NCBI GenBank assembly: GCA_050309605.1 | Contig: JBNRMN010000002.1 | Span: forward strand, 16,438 to 80,437 | Direction: 5' to 3' | DNA length: 64,000 nt | Source: Anaerohalosphaeraceae bacterium | GTDB taxonomy: Bacteria; Planctomycetota; Phycisphaerae; Sedimentisphaerales; Anaerohalosphaeraceae | Part shown: piece by piece, positions 8,370 to 19,655 of the stretch | Position numbering within the stretch: the stretch's first letter is position 1 | Layout: each line of letters opens with the position of its first letter | Program-made: the position numbers and the translations under genes | The notes under the pieces: model-generated | Database searches by the model: none | Seen by the model: the letters and a program-made list of their open reading frames with translations, nothing else | Told to the model about the DNA's origin: nothing

Positions 8370-11258
8370 ATGATATTTCCGAGAACCGGCATTATTGCAT
8401 CCTTTTTTCTGATTTTTTCGATGGGTGCATTGGGGGATGTGCAATGGCTGCGTTATCGAACCAGTGAGGATGTGGGCCAGGAGGTGGGCGCCTCGGTGAA
8501 CCGGTATTATCGCAGTTTTGAGTCGCAGCGTCCGGAGCACGTGCGGTGTCCGGAATTCAAATCCGACAGTCCCTTGTTTATTAAATGGAACACCCCGATG
8601 GACGGGCAGGGTTTTCGGTGGATCGCGTTGGATCGTTCGACGCCGTATGGACAATATGATCTGTTGTATATCGATTCAAACGGCGACGGGCATCTGGATG
8701 ACGAGAAGCCGTATCAGGGGCGGCGAAGCGATCAGTATCGTATGGCCTTTCATCCGTTTCCTGTCTATCTGACCGGCGAGGACGGGCCGATTACCTATCA
8801 TCTGGCGTGCCAATTCTACAGCTATGATGAGCGCAGTCGATATTTGATGATGTCTTCGGGCGGTTATTATGAAGGGACGGTGTTGATCGGCGGCGAACCG
8901 GTTGGGTGTGTTCTGGTGGATACCAACGGCAACGGGACGTTTGACGATACGGCTGAGGACTTTAACGCCGACCGGATTTTGCTGGGTGAAGGACAAAATC
9001 GGCGGGAGTATTTTGTGGGTCGCTATCTGGATTATGAAGGGACGTTGTATCGGCTTCAGATTGCACGCGACGGGGCGTTTGTGTCTCTTGCGGCTGCGCC
9101 CGACGTATCGTTTGGGGTCGTGCAGGTTCCCGAAGGTTTGACGAAATTCTCGGCCGGGGGTGTTAATGGAATGTATCACATGTCGCCGGAAAACGGGCAC
9201 GTGCGCCTGCCGGAAGGGACGTATCGGGTGTATCAATGGGAGTTGGTTCGTCAGGACAAGGGGCAGGACTGGACCTTGCGGGGAAGCAATTTTCCGCGTC
9301 AGCAGAGTTTTACGGTCAGCGCCGATACGCCGGCGAGGGTGGCTGTCGGCGAGCCGGTATTTTCGCGGCTGTCGGTTTCCGAACGACAGGGAATCTATTC
9401 GATCAATCAGGAACTTCGGGGCAAGATGAACGAGCAGGTCAGTGTGCTGCGAAACGGTCGGCAGCCGCCGGCGCCGAAGGTGCATATTCGCAGCCAAACG
9501 GGCGCGTATGACCGGACGTTTTCGCTGGAGTATGGGTGAGGCGGTACCTGTTCGCTCTCGTGGCGAGAGCCGAGGAATATTGAGCGTCCGTATGTTATAA
9601 CGCCGCTGGTCGAGGGGCCGTTTGATATACGGCAGATGCGCTATGTTTTTAAGCCGCTGCATCGTTCGGTACCGGTCGTCGGGCCGTGGATTGCCGAGGT
9701 TGCCGCCGATGAGGCGCTGCGCGTGGTGGTTGACGGTACGGGGCTGGTTGACCGTAACGGCGACCGTTTGCCGGAGCATTTGACGCAAACCGAGACGCAG
9801 TGGATTGTATCGCAAGAGGAGGTGGGAGAAGGGCTTGTCTTTGATTTCGGCCAAGCGGTCGAGTTGGAAACGCTTCAAATCTGGAATTACAATGAGCCGG
9901 GCTATACATCGCGCGGCGTCGCGCAGGCGGATGTATCGGTCTGGACGTCTGAAGGCGACTGGAAGACGGTTTTGCGCGGCGCGTCGCTGCAAGAAGCCGA
10001 AGGGACAGACCAGTATGATGAGCCGACCCTGCTGAGGCTTGTCCCGACGCGGGCCGAGAAGGTGCGGCTGAGCAATCTTAAGCCGTTTGCCGATGAGGGG
10101 TTTGTCGGTTTGTCGGCGATCCGGTTTTATGAGAAGGCCACGTTGGCGGCCTGCAATCCGCAGCCGCCGGGAGGGGCATCGCTGCCGTTCAGTTCTCAGG
10201 CGACGTTGTTCTGGACGCCGGGTAAAGAGGCGGCTGCGTATGATGTGTACGCCGGAATCGACGGTCAAGAGCCGGCGTTTTTGGGTCGCATTGCGGAATC
10301 TCAGGTCAAACTGGTCGGGCTGGTCGGCGAACGAACATATCGGTGGCGCATTGATGCGGTACAAACGAATGGTACCGTTACGCAAGGGCCGCTGTGGTCG
10401 TTTTCGGTTGAGCCGGGCCGCTGTGTGGCGCATTGGCCGTTTGATGAACACGAAGGCCAAACGGCTGCCGATTCGCTCGGTCAGGCGGCCGGTGTGTTGA
10501 GAGGTGAACCGGCGTGGCTGATTGACGGCGGACGGATTGACGGGGCCATCGAGCTGGACGGTCAGCGTGATTTTGTCGAAACGCCGGCGCTGCATTTGAA
10601 CACTGATACGCTGACGATGACTGTCTGGCTGCGGGCTGATCCGCCGCCGAATCAACTGACCGGCGTGATGTTCTGCCGCACGCCTTCGACGGTGGCGGGA
10701 ATTCACTTGAGCGGTACGAATCTGCGGTATCACTGGAATGATCTTCCGGAAAGTTATAATTGGGACAGCGGACTGAGTCTTCCGACGGATGGCAGGTGGG
10801 TGTTTGCCGCCCTGACGGTTACGCCGGAGTCGGCCAGGCTGTACCTGCATCATGACGGTGAGCTGAAGACAGCGGAAAATCGTCTCGTTCATTCCGTTCA
10901 GCCCTTTGACGGGCCGTTGACATTGGGATGTGACGGCGGGATCAATGACCGCAATTTCAAAGGTCGTATGGATGATGCGCGGGTGTATAATTATGCGCTG
11001 ACTGCTGAACAGATTCTTGCACTGGCCGAGGGACGTGAGCCGGCGGATTACGCTTCAGATGCGGCGCCGTCGCTGGCGCTGGCCGGTGCGGAATTGATCC
11101 AGCGCGACGCGGATTTGAAGGCGATCGCCGAGGCTCGGCAGCGCGAGCGACAAGCGGCTCCGCCGGCCGAGGTGCGCCGACGCAATATCCTGCCGGTGCT
11201 GGTGATTGTGGCGTTGATTGCCGCCGCGGCGGTGGTCTTGGGCAGGAAGTCCGCATAA
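8370..11258 (+). CDS. Putative exported selenoprotein (962 aa, Sec390; UxxxC motif, discoidin-like and LamG domains, C-terminal TM)
   Basis: ORFs 8370-9539 and 9636-11258 are in the same frame, separated only by TGA at 9537-9539. Read-through gives EYG-U-GGTCSLSWREP, and a SECIS-like hairpin follows. Signal peptide; FKGRMDDARVYNYALT LamG motif. Confidence 0.8.
9554..9570 (+). promoter_or_regulatory. Candidate bacterial SECIS hairpin
   Basis: GCTCTCG-TGG-CGAGAGC, perfect 7-bp stem; loop at +22..+24 after the TGA. Confidence 0.8.
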
Positions 11259-11382
11259 ACCGCAGAATAAGCAGTGAAACGTCAGATTTCACAAACTAAA
11301 CAGAGAACGTTCTATTATGCGGCACGATCCTTCCGGCCGTATTGAAGGGGGATCGTGCCCGTGCTGCAAGGGAGGTTTCAGG

Positions 11383-13821
11383 ATGCGTCAAGTCATAAGC
11401 AGAAACGGGTGGACGTGGGTTATGGTTGTGTCGGCGGTACTCGGTGCGGCTGAGGCGAAAACGCTCAAAGGCACGGTCACCGGTCCTGACGGCGCACCGG
11501 TGGACGGCGCGGCGGTGAGTGTCTATGCGGCCCAGCTTAAGATTGAATCGCTTGCTTTTGAGGTTCAGCCGGTCGGTCAGACGACGACGTGTTCGTCGGG
11601 ACTGTTTTCGGTGGAGACGGATGTTCAGATGCTGTCCAGCGAGGGAGGCTGGCTGTTTTTTGCGGAAAAGCCGGGCCTGTCAATCGGTTTTTCTTTGCTG
11701 CAAGACTTCTCGGAGGACAGCACGTCGCTTCAACTGACCGCGCCGCAGACATTGGCCGGACGGATTGAGGATATTCACGGTAATGCGGTTGCCGGGGCCG
11801 GGGTGCGTCTGCTGGTTTTATCGGTTCCGGGTGAGCGTGAGTGCTATACGCTGGGGCTTGAGCCGATCCCGTTTTTTGCTGCGGAAACGGATGCGCAGGG
11901 GCGATTTGAATTCGCGAATCTGCCGGAAAACTGTACGGCTGAACTCTTGGCCAAAAAGGCGGGACTGGCGACCTTTCATACGCTGACGTCCAACATCAAT
12001 CCGCAAACGGGGCTGAGTTTTTCGGTCGGGCAGGAAGATATTGTCCTGACCTTATCCGAGGCGTGTCGAATCAGCGGTATAGTGACCGACCAGGACAATC
12101 AGCCGGTGGGTCATGTGCAGATTGTGGCGATTGAAGCGGACCATCCGCAGATCGGGATTTTTACCCGGAATCTAACACGCGCCGAGGCCGACGGGACATT
12201 CAGCTTCGGCGGCCTGTCGGCCGGGTCATATCGACTCAGTGTGATTGATGCGGACTGGATGTCCGAGCCGGTTACCGTGGAGGTCAAGACGGAGGTGGGT
12301 GTGCCGCTGAAGGTCGTCAAGGGCAGCCTGCTGACAGTGACGGTGGTGGACGGCGTTTCCAATCAGCCGGTTGGATCGGCTCAAGTCAATGTGAGTCCGC
12401 AGGATGAACGCAGCAGTTTCTCGTTCGGCAGGGGCACGACCGATCCGGAGGGCAAAGTGCAAAGTCGCGTTTTGCCGGGGACGTATAATGTGTACGTCAG
12501 TGCGCCCGGATATCGCAGCAGCCGCAGTGTCGCGGCGGTCGTGGAAGACGGCAAGACCAATGAGATCACGATTATGCTGGGCGCAACGGCCCGCATTGCC
12601 GGAACGGTTACCGATTCCGACGGGCGGCCCGTTGCAGGGGCACAAGTCTTTGTGCTCCCCTTTTCGGGTAATGTGCGGGACGCCATACAGACAACCGACG
12701 AAAAGGGGCACTTTACCCTTGGGTGGGATCCGGAGCAGATCAGTTGGGTACAGGGTGAATTCTATCTTGCCGCGATTGACAAAAGCAGCAACCGTGCGGT
12801 GATTGAGCCGATTGACGCGGACACCACGGACATCCAGCTTACCCTTCAGCCCGGTCTGACGATCACCGGCAAAGTGACCGGCCCGGACGGCGAATCTCTG
12901 GCCGGGGCGGGGGTGAATGTGCAGTTTCGCGGCTCAAACTGGTCTTCGACGCTTCAGGGATACACCGCCCAAACCGACCGGGACGGGATGTATCGTATTG
13001 CCGCCATACCGCCGCAGCAGCGGTATTACTTATTCATCAGTGGGCCGACCGGTTATGGCACCGGGTCGGTTAATCTGGAGTTACCGACGGACGGCGATGT
13101 GGTTACCGCATCCGATACGGTGCTGAAATTGGCCAATCTGTCGGTATCCGGCAAGGTGGTTGATGAGGACGGCAATCCGCTGGAGGGGGTGAATCTGCAT
13201 TGTTACGGCTCCGGCCAGCCCAGCGCCCAGGCGCGAACCGGCACGGATGGGACATTTGTGTTTGATGCGGTCTGCCAAGGCGATCTGTCCATTCAGGCCA
13301 ATTATCAAAAAGACGGCGAGTATATGTATTCCAATGTCCGAACCGAAGGCGGAGCGCAGGAGGTCACGATCGTCCTGGGCCCGCAAAGCTCCGGCGGCGG
13401 CTATGTGCCGCGACGGCCGGCCCCGCTGGTCGGCAAGCTGCTGCCGGATTTGTCGGGGTACGGCATTGAGCTTGAGAGGCAGGCCGGGCCGGTGCTGGTA
13501 TGCGTCTGGGACTGGCGGCAGCGGCCGAGCCGTTATATGGTGCGGCAACTGGCCGCGCGGGCCGGTGCGCTGGCCGAGCGGTCGGTACAGGTCGTGCTGC
13601 TCAATGGCGAATCGACGGAACGTGAGCCGCTCGATGCGTGGCTGGCTGATTTTGACATTCCGTTCGTCTGCGGCGTTATCGCCATCGACCCCGATAATTC
13701 TCGATTTAATCTCGGCGTCCAGGCGATGCCGTGGCTGATTTTAACCGATGGTCAGCGCAAGGTCATTGCTGAAGGGTTTGCGCTGTCCGAATTGACTGAT
13801 AAGCTGGGCGGACTGCAATAA
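11383..13821 (+). CDS. Exported protein with carboxypeptidase-regulatory-like repeats and a C-terminal thioredoxin-like fold
   Basis: Signal peptide; repeated G.V.D.DG.P..GA.V ... TD..G.F units; C-terminal LPDL..PVLVCVW..QRPS..AMPWLILTD. Confidence 0.8.
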   Translation: MRQVISRNGWTWVMVVSAVLGAAEAKTLKGTVTGPDGAPVDGAAVSVYAAQLKIESLAFEVQPVGQTTTCSSGLFSVETDVQMLSSEGGWLFFAEKPGLSIGFSLLQDFSEDSTSLQLTAPQTLAGRIEDIHGNAVAGAGVRLLVLSVPGERECYTLGLEPIPFFAAETDAQGRFEFANLPENCTAELLAKKAGLATFHTLTSNINPQTGLSFSVGQEDIVLTLSEACRISGIVTDQDNQPVGHVQIVAIEADHPQIGIFTRNLTRAEADGTFSFGGLSAGSYRLSVIDADWMSEPVTVEVKTEVGVPLKVVKGSLLTVTVVDGVSNQPVGSAQVNVSPQDERSSFSFGRGTTDPEGKVQSRVLPGTYNVYVSAPGYRSSRSVAAVVEDGKTNEITIMLGATARIAGTVTDSDGRPVAGAQVFVLPFSGNVRDAIQTTDEKGHFTLGWDPEQISWVQGEFYLAAIDKSSNRAVIEPIDADTTDIQLTLQPGLTITGKVTGPDGESLAGAGVNVQFRGSNWSSTLQGYTAQTDRDGMYRIAAIPPQQRYYLFISGPTGYGTGSVNLELPTDGDVVTASDTVLKLANLSVSGKVVDEDGNPLEGVNLHCYGSGQPSAQARTGTDGTFVFDAVCQGDLSIQANYQKDGEYMYSNVRTEGGAQEVTIVLGPQSSGGGYVPRRPAPLVGKLLPDLSGYGIELERQAGPVLVCVWDWRQRPSRYMVRQLAARAGALAERSVQVVLLNGESTEREPLDAWLADFDIPFVCGVIAIDPDNSRFNLGVQAMPWLILTDGQRKVIAEGFALSELTDKLGGLQ

Positions 13822-13883
13822 GACGACAGCACAGCAGGGGTGTTTTATTCGGCTGTTGATGTGATTATGTTCAGGGAGTTGAG

Positions 13884-15038
13884 ATGAGACAATGGGTTGT
13901 TTTATGGGTCGCTTTCGCGGCGGCCGGGGCGATGGCGCTGACGGTTTCGGAGCAGACGCTTGATCTGTTTGGTACGTCCGAGCCGGAGGATCCGAATGCC
14001 GTGGTTCTCGCTGATCCGCCCTACACCGTCAAGGTGTCGCGCACGGGCAAAGTGCTGAATGTGGCGATTGAGACCGCGTCGCGTGAGCAGGCGGAATTGC
14101 TGTTCGGCGCGCATTATGAACAGTCGCCGAGACTGTCGATTTATAAGGGCGATTTGCTGCTGGCATCGGGGCAGTTCGCCTTTGGGTGAGGCGGCGTCTG
14201 TGCGTACTCGTGGCGAGTACCGATGTATGCTTATGGCACATTCAGAATCGAGACGGAAGTGCCGACCGGCGAAGGCGAACCGATCCGCGTCGAGCCGACG
14301 ACATATTATTTCAATCCGCTGTATCATGCGTCGGGGTTTGTCTATTTCGTTCCGGTTGCGGCGGCGTTTTTGTTCCTGAAAGAAAACCGGCGACCGAAGG
14401 CGTTTTTGATTCTGGCGCCAATGCTGCTGGTGATGGGGATGTGGAGAGGGTTTTCCGGAGTGATGCATTTTCCTGAAGAGGCGGTCAGCATGTTAAATTC
14501 AGTGGTTATGGCCTTGCTGGCGGGCCTTTCCGTTGTCTGGCTTCTGGGTGAGCGGATCGGCCATCGCCATCGGTTGGCAACGACTTTTCTGGCGGGCGGT
14601 ATTATGCTGGGGTGCTGTGCCCTGATGCTGGTAGAAATCTTTTCCTCGGACTATGTGTTTCAAATCGCATTTTTCGGTGTGATCAGTGCGGCGGTTATCC
14701 TGTCGGGCTTACTTGTCGGCGGTTTCCTGAGCCGGAAGCGATTTGGCCCGGTGCGTTTTTTGCTATGGTTCGGTGTGGGCATTTTATCGGCGACTTTTGT
14801 GCTGTTTTTTGTTTATTATGCGATTTTGACATTTTCCTATTTCAGTGCAGATTTGTTCTGGATGTTGTTGGGCGTGATGCTGACTTATGCCGCAATCTAT
14901 TGGGTAGGCGTCTTGCCGTTTCTGGTGCTGTTTTTCGTCAATGACTTTTGGCGGCAGCGGTTTACGGCGGTCATGGGATTGGGCACTGTAGCCGTATCCG
15001 AGACGGAAGCTCACGAGGCGTTTACGTCTGACTTCTGA
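13884..15038 (+). CDS. Putative membrane selenoprotein (384 aa, Sec102; exported UxxxC domain plus multi-TM domain)
   Basis: ORFs 13884-14189 and 14223-15038 are in frame, separated only by TGA at 14187-14189. Read-through gives FAFG-U-GGVCAYSWRVP, and a SECIS-like hairpin follows. Confidence 0.8.
14204..14220 (+). promoter_or_regulatory. Candidate bacterial SECIS hairpin
   Basis: GTACTCG-TGG-CGAGTAC, perfect 7-bp stem; loop at +22..+24 after the TGA. Confidence 0.8.
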
Positions 15039-15886
15039 TCGCCCAGTTCCGTCGGTTCGTCCAGCAGGGTGGCCGGCTTCAGTGCGCCGGGGCCGCATTT
15101 TGTGCATTCCAGACAGCGGATGCAGTGGTCGGCGTTGGGGGTCTTATCGGGCTGGACGCCGTAGCGGCACAGGGTTCGACAGCGGCCGCATTGGGTGCAT
15201 TGGTGTTCTTCCAGGTTCAGTGTAAACAGAGAAAACCGATTGAAAAAGCCGAAAATCGCACCCAGCGGGCACAGAATTCGACACCACGGGCGGATGGTAA
15301 AAAAGATGGCGGCGACAAAGACGACGATGATGGTGATTTTGAGGGTGTTGGGCCAGGGGATTACGTCGCCGGCGACGGCGGCGGAAACCACATCGGGCAG
15401 GGCCTTTTCCAGCCCGCCGGCCGGGCAGATACGGCAGATAAACAGCGGGTGGCCTTCGCCGAAAAAGTAGGGGACGGCCAGGACTGTCCCGATCAGTACG
15501 ACATAGCGAAAATGCCCCATCCAGCGGGGGATTTTGAAACGCGGCGCGGGGACCTTGGCCGCGACATCCTGAAGCAGGCCGAACGGACACATCCAGCCGC
15601 ACACCAGCGAGCCGAGCATCACGCCGAACGCGATCAGCAGTCCCACGGCAAAATACGGAAACAGGTGCAGCGCACTGAATTGGGCAATGACGCCGATGGG
15701 GCAGCCGAACAAGGCCAGCGGACAGGCATAGCAATGGAACACCGGTCCGCACACGGTGTGCATCCGCAACCCGAACGGATCGAGCCAGACCAGCAAAAAA
15801 CCCGTCTGTACCCACAGCCGATGCGGCAGGAGTTTTTTGAAAAACCGCGACAGCGGCGATGACGATGAATTGACCGTGGACACCAC
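15011..15886 (-). CDS. Membrane 4Fe-4S binding protein (NapH/YccM-like polyferredoxin)
   Basis: CGWMCPFG and WCRILCPLG CxxxCP motifs; CTQCGRCRTLC and CIRCLECTKC ferredoxin motifs; TM helices; AAGGAGG RBS (start may be the second GTG, 15883). Confidence 0.9.
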   Translation of the reverse strand: MVSTVNSSSSPLSRFFKKLLPHRLWVQTGFLLVWLDPFGLRMHTVCGPVFHCYACPLALFGCPIGVIAQFSALHLFPYFAVGLLIAFGVMLGSLVCGWMCPFGLLQDVAAKVPAPRFKIPRWMGHFRYVVLIGTVLAVPYFFGEGHPLFICRICPAGGLEKALPDVVSAAVAGDVIPWPNTLKITIIVVFVAAIFFTIRPWCRILCPLGAIFGFFNRFSLFTLNLEEHQCTQCGRCRTLCRYGVQPDKTPNADHCIRCLECTKCGPGALKPATLLDEPTELGDQKSDVNAS

Positions 15887-15890
15887 AGCC
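15872..15890 (-). promoter_or_regulatory. Candidate bacterial SECIS hairpin overlapping the start of the next gene
   Basis: GGCTGTGG-TGT-CCACGGTC, 8-bp stem with two G-U pairs; loop at +22..+24 after the TGA. Confidence 0.65.
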
Positions 15891-15894
15891 TCCT

Positions 15895-16140
15895 TTAACT
15901 GCCTCAGGTCGGGCAGGCTTCGGGGGGCTTGCCCGTGTAGGTTAACTGCAATCGACCGTCGTCGGTACGCTCCAGCCCGCCGATGCTGACTTCCTTCATC
16001 AGCCGCGTTTCGGGCGTGGCCAACCCTTTGTCGTTGTGTTCCGAAAAGACCGGCTGCGTGTGAAACTTCAGCCCGAAGGCCATCAGGCCGGCGCCGATAA
16101 ACAGCAGCACAAATACGATTTTGATCTTGAAGGACTCCAT
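15895..16140 (-). CDS. Small membrane-anchored protein with a putative C-terminal CxxU motif (81 aa with read-through)
   Basis: N-terminal TM; ends TGC CCG ACC TGA GGC AGT TAA = C-P-T-U-G-S-stop. Confidence 0.7.
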
Positions 16141-16233
16141 AATATTTACGCTATCATAGCACACCGGAATGTATTTGTAAACAGCGTTTGGCGTACAAAA
16201 TGATTGGCGGCCAGTCAGGATCGGCAGCCAAAT

Positions 16234-16286: not shown

Positions 16287-17297
16287 TTATGTTGTCGGTT
16301 TGATTTCCAGCGGATGGGCGTTTTGATATTGTTCCTGCATTCGACTGGTGGTGATATGCGTATAAATCTGGGTTGTCGATAACGATTGGTGTCCCAGCAG
16401 TTCCTGAACGCTTCGCAGGTCGGCACCGTTGTTGAGCATATGGGTCGCGAAGCTGTGCCGCAGCGTGTGCGGGCTGATGTTCGGGTCCAGACCCGCCTCG
16501 ATGAGGTATTTGTCCATTTTTCGGCGGACGCTGCGGGCACTCATCCGTTTGCCGTGCTTGTTGGCAAACAGCACTTTACTGTCAAAGCCCGGATCATTGG
16601 CCAGACGGCGGCTGCGAAACTCCAGATAATGTTGAATGCTCTGCAGCGCTGTCAGACCAATCGGGCAAATCCGTTCTTTTTTGCCTTTGCCGCGGACGTG
16701 AATCACTTCGCCGAGGAAATCCACATCTTCCATATTCAGGGCCACCAGTTCGCTGACCCGCATCCCCGTGCTGTAGAGTACTTCCATCATCGCTCGGTCG
16801 CGGGCACCCAGCCATGTGGTGGCCGGCGGTGTGTTCAGCAGCCGCTGAACCTGCTCGTATTCAAGAAACTTGGGCAGTTTTTTATCTTGTTTGGGTGTTT
16901 TGATATTGGTGGCCGGATTGCTGGACACATAATTGCGCTTGACGAGAAATTTGTAAAAGCTGCGCACCGTGGCCAGTTTGCGTGCGGTGGTGGATTTGGA
17001 ATAGGCGTGGGAGTTCAATTCCGCCAGAAAACGGCGTATCGTATTGACGTCCGCAGCCTGCAGCAGGGTATCGATCTGGGTTTGTGCCTGGGTCTGTGTT
17101 TGTGTCGCGACCGAACCGTTCTCGGCGGCCCAGGGATTTTGTCCGTTGTCGTCGGGGCCGTGCGCGTCGGCGTGGGCGGCCAGAAAGGCGCTGTACTGCT
17201 CCAGGTCAGCCTCATAACACTTGGCGGTATGCTCGGAAAAATGTTTTTCAAATTTCAGATAATTGACAAAATCCTGGATAATCGCCGAGTTGTCCAT
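16287..17297 (-). CDS. xerC: Tyrosine recombinase XerC
   Basis: RD.A..E.LYSTGMRVSEL, GKGKKER, SPHTLRHSFATH.L..GADLR.VQELLGH.SLSTTQIYTH. Confidence 0.88.
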   Translation of the reverse strand: MDNSAIIQDFVNYLKFEKHFSEHTAKCYEADLEQYSAFLAAHADAHGPDDNGQNPWAAENGSVATQTQTQAQTQIDTLLQAADVNTIRRFLAELNSHAYSKSTTARKLATVRSFYKFLVKRNYVSSNPATNIKTPKQDKKLPKFLEYEQVQRLLNTPPATTWLGARDRAMMEVLYSTGMRVSELVALNMEDVDFLGEVIHVRGKGKKERICPIGLTALQSIQHYLEFRSRRLANDPGFDSKVLFANKHGKRMSARSVRRKMDKYLIEAGLDPNISPHTLRHSFATHMLNNGADLRSVQELLGHQSLSTTQIYTHITTSRMQEQYQNAHPLEIKPTT

Positions 17298-17880: not shown

Positions 17881-18825
17881 TCAGGGAATCTTAAAAAATT
17901 CCGTGCCTGACCGTATATCGGACACAATTTGGCCTGTTTTCAAAAGGGCGTCCAGCAGCGGACGCACTTGATCGGGGCTGAGGGACAGCCCGATGCCGAT
18001 ATCCTTCAATGAACAGGGATGACGACGGAGCATGGCAAGAACCGCTTCGGTGTTGCCGGTGAGGTCTGCCGAAGCGGCAGGGCCTTGATGACGACTGAAA
18101 TCAGCAATGATTTCGGCTTGCGGATGCAGTTTTGGGGCGATCTGCTCCAATTCCTGAGGCGAAACCGGCAGCGCCTCGGCGTGGGTGGTCGGACGCGCAG
18201 CGGTGTTGAGCTGGACTTTGTCGGGGCGGATTTTTGCGATGAGTCGGGCGATGTTTCGGATACGGTCCTCGTCGGTGTTGATTCCCCGACAGAAAAAAAC
18301 CTCCAGCCAGATTTGGCCGGCGTATTCGTCGCGAAACCGGCATAAACCATTGATAAAAAGCTCGAAATTCAGGTCGGGATGCGGGTTGTTCAGGCGGCGA
18401 AAGGTCGCTTCATCGCCGGCATCGAGCGAGGGCAGTACGACATCCGCCTTGGCGCAGTCCCGCCGAACCTCCGGCTGATACAGCAGTGTGCCGTTGGTGA
18501 TGACGGCGGCGGGTATGTCGGTCAGCTTTTTGATGCCGTCGATGATGACGCCCAGTTCACTGTGCAGGGTCGGCTCGCCGGAACCGCTGAGGGTGATGTA
18601 GTCGGCGGACAGTCCCTCGTCTAACCGTTGGCGCAATTCAGTCAGCACCGCATCGGTCGGCACATAGACTTTGCGCTCCAGCGTCAGCGGGGCGTCTTTG
18701 CCCAGTTGGCAATAGAGGCAGTTTTGGGTGCAGGTCTTCATCGGGACGATGTCCAGCCCCAGGCTTTGGCCCAGACGACGCGAACGAACAGGCCCGAACA
18801 GATAGTGATAGGTTGACTTGGCCAT
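17881..18825 (-). CDS. Radical SAM protein
   Basis: FGPV.SRRLG.SLG, CTQNCLYC (CxxxCxxC), SGSGEPTL; TAATG overlap with the kdsA stop. Confidence 0.92.
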   Translation of the reverse strand: MAKSTYHYLFGPVRSRRLGQSLGLDIVPMKTCTQNCLYCQLGKDAPLTLERKVYVPTDAVLTELRQRLDEGLSADYITLSGSGEPTLHSELGVIIDGIKKLTDIPAAVITNGTLLYQPEVRRDCAKADVVLPSLDAGDEATFRRLNNPHPDLNFELFINGLCRFRDEYAGQIWLEVFFCRGINTDEDRIRNIARLIAKIRPDKVQLNTAARPTTHAEALPVSPQELEQIAPKLHPQAEIIADFSRHQGPAASADLTGNTEAVLAMLRRHPCSLKDIGIGLSLSPDQVRPLLDALLKTGQIVSDIRSGTEFFKIP

Positions 18826-19655
18826 TATGATTTTGGATTGCGAATGAGTTGATGGATACGGCCGCACATCGAGACCAGTGATTCCACTTCGTCCAGCGGG
18901 AGCATACAGGCCGCATCGCAGAGGGCATTGGCCGGGTCGGGGTGGATTTCCATAAACAAGGCGTTGGCGCCTGCCGCCGTTGCAGCGCGGGCCAATATCG
19001 GGGCCATATCGGGCGTGCCGGCACTGGCCGTGCCCAAACCGCCCGGCCGCTGGGTGCTGTGTGTGGCGTCAAAGACGACCGGACAGCCGATTTGCTGCAT
19101 CAGCGGGATGGCAGTCATATCGTTGACATTGCGGTTGTAGCCGAAAAACGTGCCCCGTTCGGTCAAGAGAATCTTGTGGTTTCCGGTGGAACGTACCTTT
19201 TGGACGCAGTTTTTCATCTCTTCGGGGCTGACGAACTGACCTTTTTTGATATTGACGGGCTTTTGTGTCCGGCCGCAGGCGACCAGCAAGTCAGTTTGAC
19301 GACATAAAAACGCCGGAATCTGAAGACAATCGACCACCGAGCCGGCGGCCTCGGCCTGGGCCGGTTCGTGGACATCGGTCAGGACGGGCAGGCCCGTTTT
19401 TGAGTGCACGTCATTCAGTATGGCAAGGCCTTTTTCCAGGCCAGGCCCGCGAAAACTGTCAATACTTGAACGATTGGCCTTGTCGAAACTGGCCTTGAAG
19501 ATCACGCCGACACCGGTGCGCTCCCGAATGCCGAGTAGCGTCTCGGCGATCCGCAGGCACACATCGCGGCTTTCTATCACGCACGGTCCGGCAATGATAA
19601 ACAGCGGCTCATTGAGACCGACCTTGATTTGTCCAATGTGAAAGGATGAATTCAT
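18825..19655 (-). CDS. kdsA: KDO 8-phosphate synthase
   Basis: AGPCVIES, KASFDKANRSS, QIPAFLCRQTDL, ERG..FGY, FDATHS.Q.PG. Confidence 0.97.
   Translation of the reverse strand: MNSSFHIGQIKVGLNEPLFIIAGPCVIESRDVCLRIAETLLGIRERTGVGVIFKASFDKANRSSIDSFRGPGLEKGLAILNDVHSKTGLPVLTDVHEPAQAEAAGSVVDCLQIPAFLCRQTDLLVACGRTQKPVNIKKGQFVSPEEMKNCVQKVRSTGNHKILLTERGTFFGYNRNVNDMTAIPLMQQIGCPVVFDATHSTQRPGGLGTASAGTPDMAPILARAATAAGANALFMEIHPDPANALCDAACMLPLDEVESLVSMCGRIHQLIRNPKS

Follow-up and report, generated by a model that had tools for sequence, protein, structure and literature searches.

The question raised by this locus is whether three in-frame TGA codons, lying within 6.4 kb of one another in a planctomycete contig, are stops or sites at which selenocysteine (Sec, U) is inserted, and what the proteins that carry them might do. 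The contig (JBNRMN010000002.1) belongs to the assembly GCA_050309605.1 of an Anaerohalosphaeraceae bacterium (3.4 Mb, 97 contigs, 99.7% complete), and all positions are those of a 64,000-nt window of it (16,438 to 80,437, forward strand), that is, the whole stretch of DNA that was analysed. Judged by comparison of sequences, the three TGAs almost certainly encode Sec, and the cluster at 8370–16164 is likely to encode three selenoproteins from two uncatalogued families, set in a conserved gene module. The selenoprotein reading is supported by the full Sec machinery of the genome, by the retention of TGA in all the homologues that were examined, by hairpins that covary, and by coding that is conserved beyond the TGAs. 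A preliminary description of the window had proposed three unannotated selenoprotein genes in an envelope-associated cluster; support for this proposal is strong at TGA1 and TGA2 and good at TGA3.

The in-frame TGAs were read from open reading frame (ORF) listings made with and without TGA translated as U, together with the raw sequence. TGA1 (9537–9539, +) joins an ORF of 389 codons (8370–9539) to a frame open up to 11258, and the product, P0001, has 962 amino acids with U390 in the context ...SLEYG-U-GGTCSLSWREP. TGA2 (14187–14189, +) joins an ORF of 101 codons (13884–14189) to a frame ending at 15038, and its product, P0002, has 384 amino acids with U102 in the context ...QFAFG-U-GGVCAYSWRVP. 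TGA3 (15906–15904, −) is followed by GGC AGT TAA, and P0003 ends in ...PPEACPT-U-GS. The distance from 9537 to 15906 is 6.4 kb. The preliminary description had noted that each TGA lies near a Cys (UxxxC at TGA1 and TGA2, CxxU at TGA3) and is followed by a stem-loop; the former was borne out by the ORFs and the raw sequence, and the latter could be read directly from the sequence, with a 3-nt loop (TGG, TGG, and TGT) at exactly +22 to +24 counted from the A of each TGA. It had also predicted that all three proteins are exported or membrane-anchored, which agrees with hydrophobic N-termini in the sequence and with helices in the AlphaFold2 models. The features of the cluster, with the predicted selenocysteine insertion sequence (SECIS) elements and the evidence for each, are as follows.

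8370..11258, + strand: P0001 gene, predicted exported selenoprotein of 962 amino acids (ORF read-through, domain scan, AlphaFold2)
9537..9539, + strand: predicted Sec codon 1 (TGA) in GUGGTCSLSWRE (sequence and homologue comparison)
9554..9570, + strand: SECIS hairpin 1, GCUCUCG-UGG-CGAGAGC (sequence and covariation)
11317..13821, + strand: CarboxypepD_reg/Ig-like repeat protein of 834 amino acids, C-terminal domain thioredoxin-like without CxxC (QRPS), conserved member of the module (domain scan, orthologues)
13884..15038, + strand: P0002 gene, predicted membrane selenoprotein of 384 amino acids (ORF read-through, AlphaFold2)
14187..14189, + strand: predicted Sec codon 2 (TGA) in GUGGVCAYSWRV (sequence and homologue comparison)
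14204..14220, + strand: SECIS hairpin 2, GUACUCG-UGG-CGAGUAC (sequence and covariation)
15011..15886, − strand: NapH/MauN-like membrane polyferredoxin of 291 amino acids, with CxxCP motifs and two CxxCxxCxxxC clusters (Pfam and NCBIfam scans)
15895..16140, − strand: P0003 gene, predicted small membrane-anchored selenoprotein of 81 amino acids from the ATG at 16140, ending ...EACPT-U-GS-TAA (sequence and homologues)
15904..15906, − strand: predicted Sec codon 3 (TGA) in CxxU, third residue from the C-terminus (sequence and 15 loci)
15872..15890, − strand: SECIS-like hairpin 3, GGCUGUGG-UGU-CCACGGUC, overlapping the GTG start (15886–15884) of the NapH-like gene (sequence, RNAalifold)

In DNA letters, the hairpins read GCTCTCG-TGG-CGAGAGC, GTACTCG-TGG-CGAGTAC, and GGCTGTGG-TGT-CCACGGTC (hairpin 3, 15890–15872, −). 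The 3.4-Mb assembly was scanned for TGAs preceded by at least 60 open codons and followed by a stem of at least 6 bp with a TGG, TGT, CGT, or GGT loop at a shift of −1 to +2, and 14 matches were obtained, five of them with shift 0. The arrangement in the window exceeds chance, because its three sites were the only ones of the 14 with a plausible protein context. Nor are the TGAs assembly errors, since independent contigs keep them: a metagenome contig from run X3 covers the whole stretch with 18 differences, none of which falls in a TGA, and contigs from run X4 (records 12 and 16) carry all three TGAs unchanged. At 9525–9578, contigs from X5 and X11, derived from other organisms or paralogues, aligned with the window over just the core of about 50 nt that contains the TGA and the hairpin and diverged beyond it, indicating that the recoding cassette is conserved at the nucleotide level between different genes.

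Comparison of homologues showed that P0001 and P0002 each hold one extracytoplasmic beta-sandwich domain of about 100 residues, with Sec in the Gly-rich turn of a beta-hairpin (F-x-Y-G-U-G-G-x-C-x-Y-S-W-R-V-P) and Cys four residues on; this is referred to as the GUGGxC domain. When 41 related genomes, including that of the window (G000), were searched with P0002, matches were found in 12. All 18 matches that cover residue 102 contain TGA, at identities down to 28%, and the two matches without TGA do not reach this residue. A DNA pattern (GGN-TGH-GGN-GGN-NNN-TGY...), in which A, C, or T was allowed at the third base of the U codon, was then used to scan 185,579 species genomes. It gave at least 136 loci and at least 140 unique sites; among the matches listed, 134 had TGA and six had TGY. 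All six TGY sites and one TGA site were ruled out as domain copies, being unrelated GC-rich matches that were out of frame. The tabulation of TGA against TGC and TGT at the U position therefore gave TGA in 133 of 133 genuine domain copies among the matches listed, with no Cys codon in these close copies.

The named records among the matches listed came mostly from Planctomycetota (Sedimentisphaerales, other Phycisphaerae, Pirellulales, Planctomycetaceae, and Brocadiaceae) and Verrucomicrobiota, with single records from Kiritimatiellia, Hydrogenedentota, Sumerlaeota/BRC1, Riflebacteria, Zixibacteria, and a few others, and the closest named relative of P0002 among them was encoded in a Phycisphaerae metagenome-assembled genome (81% identity). 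The domain occurs in several subtypes: P0002-like, with a multi-transmembrane C-terminus; P0001-like, with CSLSWRE; and many secreted proteins that end 40–50 residues past U. The preliminary description had reasoned that homologues always ending at the TGA, with no conserved coding beyond it, would speak against Sec; instead, the translation past the TGA is conserved across homologues, and all 10 database homologues of P0002 consist of the post-TGA fragment alone. A profile built from 95 copies of the domain had 372 matches at E ≤ 1e-3 among 1.84 billion representatives. About 46 of the best 150 of these 372 terminate at ...F-x-Y-G, and 26 of the same 150 have Cys in the U column. Residues G and W in this column are inferred to reflect translation under genetic codes 25 and 4, respectively. 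Six public entries (P0014, P0016, P0017, P0020, P0022, and P0023) have G or W exactly at the Sec position and are otherwise typical copies; they are probably mis-translated (code 25 or 4), not truncated. Compared in this way, the wider family has Cys and non-redox forms, and the tight clade of the Planctomycetota–Verrucomicrobiota–Chlamydiota (PVC) group has predicted Sec throughout.

The hairpin following the TGA of GUGGxC genes was compared over 148 sites. The loop was TGG in all of them, and the pairs from +15/+31 to +20/+26 were formed in 147–148 sites. Pairing reached 96.2% of cells compared with 87.9% in shuffles, and the covariation score was 0.284 compared with 0.121, with none of 500 shuffles as high in either case; in slid controls, pairing was at most 57.6%. 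These values must be read with the fact, which weighs against the hairpin evidence, that the scan pattern itself fixed several hairpin columns (WSN TGG MGN G), so that the pairing is partly built in and only the pairs +15/+31 to +18/+28 are independent of it. Compensatory changes occurred in three pairs (e.g., UA 72, CG 47, and UG 25), and the covariation left a trace at the protein level in the form of complementary codons (Y..V, L..E, H..V, and T-W-S). For TGA1 and TGA2, the features expected of a SECIS element, namely a hairpin directly downstream, a G in the apical loop, and covariation, were thus all present. The comparison shows a 7-bp hairpin with a UGG loop, 15–31 nt downstream, via which the UGA would be decoded and which appears also to dictate the codons of the xSWRx residues.

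The genome also contains the machinery that such decoding requires; selA, selB, selD, and tRNA-Sec had been named in the preliminary description as the genes to look for, and all four were found. In profile searches, selA scored 550.6 bits (cut-off 267.9) and the adjoining selB 323.6 bits (cut-off 242.25); selD was present, and next to it lies the tRNA-Sec gene (74.4 bits; anticodon TCA by ARAGORN). The selD match (G000:C64:22338-23261) is within a 575-codon open frame with no internal stops, and tRNA-Sec is about 600 bp downstream. The SelD of this genome is not a selenoprotein and may carry an extra domain. FdhA (TIGR01553) was searched for in the genome and not found. Over the 41 genomes, selA and the GUGG domain occurred together in 10, the domain alone in one (a 76% complete genome), selA alone in one, and neither in 29, so that the two are nearly always present or absent together. 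In six of the 10 genomes with both, that of the window included, selA has a GUGG-type gene no more than 2 kb away, and in two more the distance is at most 12 kb. A fourth candidate Sec gene was observed outside the window (G000:C34, locus L038 1447-1707, −). This ORF of 86 amino acids contains ...MEYG-U-GSTCRYSWRVP and lies some 350 bp away from selA, on the other strand; a signal peptide is not evident, and the gene may represent a truncated copy.

The third TGA was examined separately in 15 loci from two phyla; some are homologues found within the order, and the others are the genes that precede NapH-like orthologues in five distant genomes. In all 15, the gene ends C-[PA]-T-TGA, two variable codons, and then a stop, even in three verrucomicrobial copies whose sequences are otherwise unrecognisably dissimilar, and in all 15 it is directly upstream of the NapH-like polyferredoxin gene. 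The RNAfold structure of the 48 nt past the TGA includes a stem-loop in every locus, and the RNAalifold consensus hairpin has compensatory changes in four of six pairs. The comparison shows P0003 as a small protein, predicted to be anchored at its N-terminus, with a C-P-T-U-x-x tail; it is called the CPTU protein below.

That the TGAs are real stops, separating genes or marking a decaying pseudogene, or that TGA is read as Gly or Trp, is extremely improbable. Such an explanation would account for the splitting of these genes by gene callers and for the database entries with G (11) or W (4) at the U position among the best 150 of 372 profile matches. It does not accord with a TGA at one exact codon in all 133 copies among the matches listed, with conserved protein on both sides and the requirement for a start codon or ribosome-binding site unsatisfied downstream of the TGA, nor with the covariation of the hairpins and the presence of the full Sec machinery, linked to the genes. 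TGA is not reassigned, because P0002 and many homologues themselves terminate at a TGA stop. A narrower alternative concerns TGA3, which might be an ordinary stop at ...ACPT, with its hairpin providing translational coupling to, or regulation of, the NapH-like gene, and the cluster would then encode two selenoproteins only. Several observations weigh against Sec here: hairpin 3 contains the start codon of the NapH-like gene just past its Shine–Dalgarno sequence and so could serve its translation instead; no Cys form of P0003 was found among 17 database proteins and 15 loci; all 17 database homologues terminate at ...CPT; and the two residues that follow U vary between copies (GS, GK, TS, VK, IK, VQ, and GT). 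However, the codon is TGA in 15 of 15 loci, never TAA or TAG, in two phyla and down to unrecognisable similarity, and a second in-frame stop follows exactly two codons on in all of them despite the variable bases between. The UGU loop in the window is at the same distance from the TGA as in both GUGG hairpins, CxxU counts as a classic redox motif, and families termed "UXX-star" exist in Table 1 of a 2026 review of prokaryotic selenoproteins (PMC13188914). We therefore consider Sec at TGA3 very likely and an ordinary stop improbable.

As for what the proteins do, P0001 starts with a signal or anchor sequence, followed by tandem beta-sandwiches, the Sec domain (U390), a weak F5/8-C match, LamG (730–882), and a C-terminal transmembrane anchor. 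P0002 comprises a predicted signal peptide, the Sec domain (U102), and approximately 7–8 transmembrane helices, and its terminator is an ordinary TGA. The AlphaFold2 model of P0002 (15-row alignment; mean predicted local distance difference test [pLDDT] 76, predicted template modelling score 0.69) has a beta-sandwich at residues 47–143 followed by transmembrane helices; U102 is in the loop joining strands 91–97 and 105–111, with C106 within the second strand. Residues 1–432 of P0001 were modelled as all-beta tandem beta-sandwiches (pLDDT 87).

The two GUGGxC genes belong to a module of five, namely a P0002-like gene, a P0001-like gene, the CarboxypepD_reg repeat protein gene, the CPTU gene, and the NapH-like gene. 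All five are also present in another related genome (G016) and occur in the same order in two Verrucomicrobia (G041 and G043). By this comparison, the module is conserved in Planctomycetota and Verrucomicrobiota and is linked to selAB. In three of five distant genomes, NapH-like orthologues (45–81% identity) lie 4–11 kb from GUGG genes on the same contig. The membrane polyferredoxin named in the preliminary description was recognised by Pfam Fer4_5 (49.4 bits, cut-off 22) and resembles NapH/MauN, although at 66.4 bits it falls below the TIGR02163 threshold of 213; given that shortfall, it is assigned to a distinct subfamily on its sequence. The thioredoxin-fold protein suggested at 11317–13821 fared less well: its G016 orthologue matches Thioredoxin_8 at 2.7e-4, under the cut-off, whereas the C-terminus of the window copy has no Pfam match even at E ≤ 10 and no CxxC. 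It therefore does not show the profile match and CxxC of a thioredoxin-fold oxidoreductase.

Other genes stand beside the module in individual genomes. In G016, a 520-amino-acid protein with a C-terminal transmembrane anchor (L190 16280-17842, +) carries the variant KFEYG-U-GGPIPCSWRVP, in which the U-to-C spacing is two residues longer. In G041, the module is flanked (L202 1-1158, +, and 13599-15998, +) by an AIRS/AIRS_C + CMD (AhpD-like) fusion, which is possibly SelD-like, and by a full DsbD (DsbD_N + DsbD_TM + Thioredoxin_7). In the window itself, a 328-amino-acid ORF (17881–18867, −) has CxxxCxxC (CTQNCLYCQ), typical of radical SAM enzymes, and a XerC-like recombinase gene (16287–17297, −) lies between it and the cluster; both are named from reading of the sequence.

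The best functional clue comes from fusions: five of 15 scanned relatives contain an AhpC-TSA/Redoxin domain of the ResA/DsbE type, all five with Cys in the U column, which points to thiol/selenol–disulfide chemistry. We tentatively propose, as a realistic possibility, that the module works as a redox relay in the envelope and depends on selenium. Electrons would be drawn from a membrane or cytoplasmic pool by the NapH-like Fe-S protein, the flexible CPTU tail would act as a selenylsulfide shuttle, and the terminal redox sites, acting on an extracellular substrate, would be the U...C hairpins exposed on the membrane and surface proteins. Transfer of electrons across the membrane by the polyferredoxin to the Sec sites, as the preliminary description envisaged, is plausible because of the conserved gene order and the redoxin fusions of the Cys forms. 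Several results weigh against the relay. The P0002 model had no Foldseek match in the PDB at E ≤ 0.001, and a wider fold search, which barely covered the transmembrane part, yielded nothing more specific than Ig/FN3/CBM sandwiches of a generic type (best CBM56, Z 9.9); for the P0001 model (1–432), all matches were to generic chains of the multi-Ig adhesin and macroglobulin-like kinds, and the template modelling score did not exceed 0.22. These searches yielded no function. The transmembrane part of P0002 has no conserved Cys or His, and QRPS replaces CxxC in both the window copy of the repeat protein and its G016 orthologue. Among the best 150 of 372 profile matches, other residues in the U column are G (11), R (10), S (10), L (9), and W (4). 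Across the superfamily, this position is thus often occupied by neither Sec nor Cys, so the domain can exist without a redox residue.

The main alternative, which we regard as rather unlikely, is that the exposed G-U-G-G-x-C hairpin binds or carries a soft metal (Cu, Hg, or Ag), a metalloid, or sulfane sulfur or selenium, with the NapH-like protein reducing the bound species, by analogy with a CcoG-like metal reductase and a SoxY-like carrier arm. The modelled position of Sec, in a Gly-rich loop between two beta-hairpin strands of an Ig-like sandwich, would suit such a role, and the transmembrane domain of P0002, lacking conserved Cys or His, might be a permease or anchor; in one verrucomicrobial locus, the flanking genes encode a NosD-like beta-helix protein and a ferritin. 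Metal-binding beta-sandwiches do appear among the generic fold matches (CrdA, Z 8.3; HftA, Z 7.8), but within the stated noise range of the search tool (Z 7–10). Moreover, the conserved genes of the module include no metal transporter or chaperone, and the fusion of Cys forms to ResA/DsbE-type thiol:disulfide oxidoreductase domains favours disulfide chemistry and hence the relay.

The canonical SelB/SECIS-dependent bacterial selenoprotein gene is represented by the bSECIS model and the E. coli fdhF paradigm. The cluster shares with such genes an in-frame UGA, a 3' hairpin whose small apical loop contains G, a genome with selA, selB, selD, and tRNA-Sec, and Cys at the same position in distant relatives; it differs in its new protein families, its short 7-bp stem, the fixed 3-nt UGG loop encoding xSWRx, and the failure to find FdhA. 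NapH/MauN/NosR polyferredoxins (TIGR02163, Fer4_5) likewise have transmembrane helices with CxxCP and two C-terminal 4Fe-4S motifs; in contrast to NapH systems, no NapG or NapC partner was seen among the module genes examined, and the partner here is the CPTU selenoprotein. The TlpA/ResA/DsbE oxidoreductases are related through the fold that is fused to Cys-form relatives and through the thioredoxin-like C-terminal domain in the cluster, but that domain has QRPS for CxxC and is below the Pfam threshold, and the predicted Sec is outside the thioredoxin fold. The GCUG arm at the C-terminus of animal thioredoxin reductase and the GGCGG arm of SoxY offer a likeness by analogy alone, in that a redox-active or carrier chalcogen sits on a flexible Gly-rich terminal or loop segment, in different proteins and at a different cellular location. 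DUF1573 is a small beta-sandwich domain typical of PVC-type bacteria. Its entry in Table 1 of PMC13188914 ("UGC", PF07610) resembles the GUGG domain as a predicted selenoprotein family with a short U/C motif, whereas the GUGG domain has no Pfam match to PF07610 and its spacing is U-G-G-x-C, not U-G-C. The same table lists the UXX-star families (NF041114 and NF041211) and KCU-star. If the name denotes U-x-x-stop, P0003 would be like the former, as described there, in having Sec at the extreme C-terminus and the SECIS in the 3' region; it has no NCBIfam match at E ≤ 1, its C-P-T-U differs from the UxxT and GxGU of the table, and, unlike those families, it is predicted to be membrane-anchored and always precedes a NapH-like gene.

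The suggestion that GUGGxCxxSW lies outside the well-known selenoprotein families also held. Neither the Sec domain nor P0003 is covered by a curated Pfam or NCBIfam (release 20) model, even at E ≤ 1; neither GUGGxC nor CPTU is among the 119 prokaryotic selenoprotein families of Table 1 of PMC13188914; and literature searches found no description of either family. The families of Haft & Tolstoy ("Novel selenoprotein neighborhoods") were compared as represented in that table and in NCBIfam. "Hypothetical protein DG" (GUxG, NF049953) was rejected as a match: there is no NCBIfam match, and it comes from Desulfosediminicola and has many Cys homologues. Other planctomycete selenoproteins are among those listed in PMC4807772. 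According to PMC12013277, prediction pipelines now lean on Cys homologues, and this reliance may explain why the families were missed.

These results add two putative families to the selenoproteome and would correct gene models across a superphylum. Well over 100 public genomes, from Planctomycetota, Verrucomicrobiota, and a few further phyla, carry the GUGGxC domain. The genes appear in annotation as "hypothetical proteins", either truncated or split; all 10 database homologues of P0002 were cut at the TGA, as were all 17 of P0003. Bacterial selenoproteins are mostly cytoplasmic thioredoxin-fold proteins or molybdo-enzymes; here, the models place Sec in an Ig-like domain, on a loop that is exposed, and the proteins are predicted to be exported, membrane-bound, or displayed at the surface. 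Being short and embedded in codons, the UGG hairpin merits study as a compact natural SECIS, and the definition of a five-gene module with a NapH-like Fe-S protein leaves its chemistry open to direct tests. The module also offers a possible explanation for the retention of selABD in a genome in which FdhA was not found. It is possible, if rather doubtful, that the GUGGxC domain, the CPTU protein, and the NapH-like polyferredoxin form a new selenium-dependent extracytoplasmic electron-transfer system whose close members escaped the catalogue because they always have Sec and never Cys, while standard searches use Sec/Cys pairs. Such a system, gained and lost with selAB as a unit, would then be the main reason, instead of formate dehydrogenase, that many PVC bacteria keep the Sec machinery.

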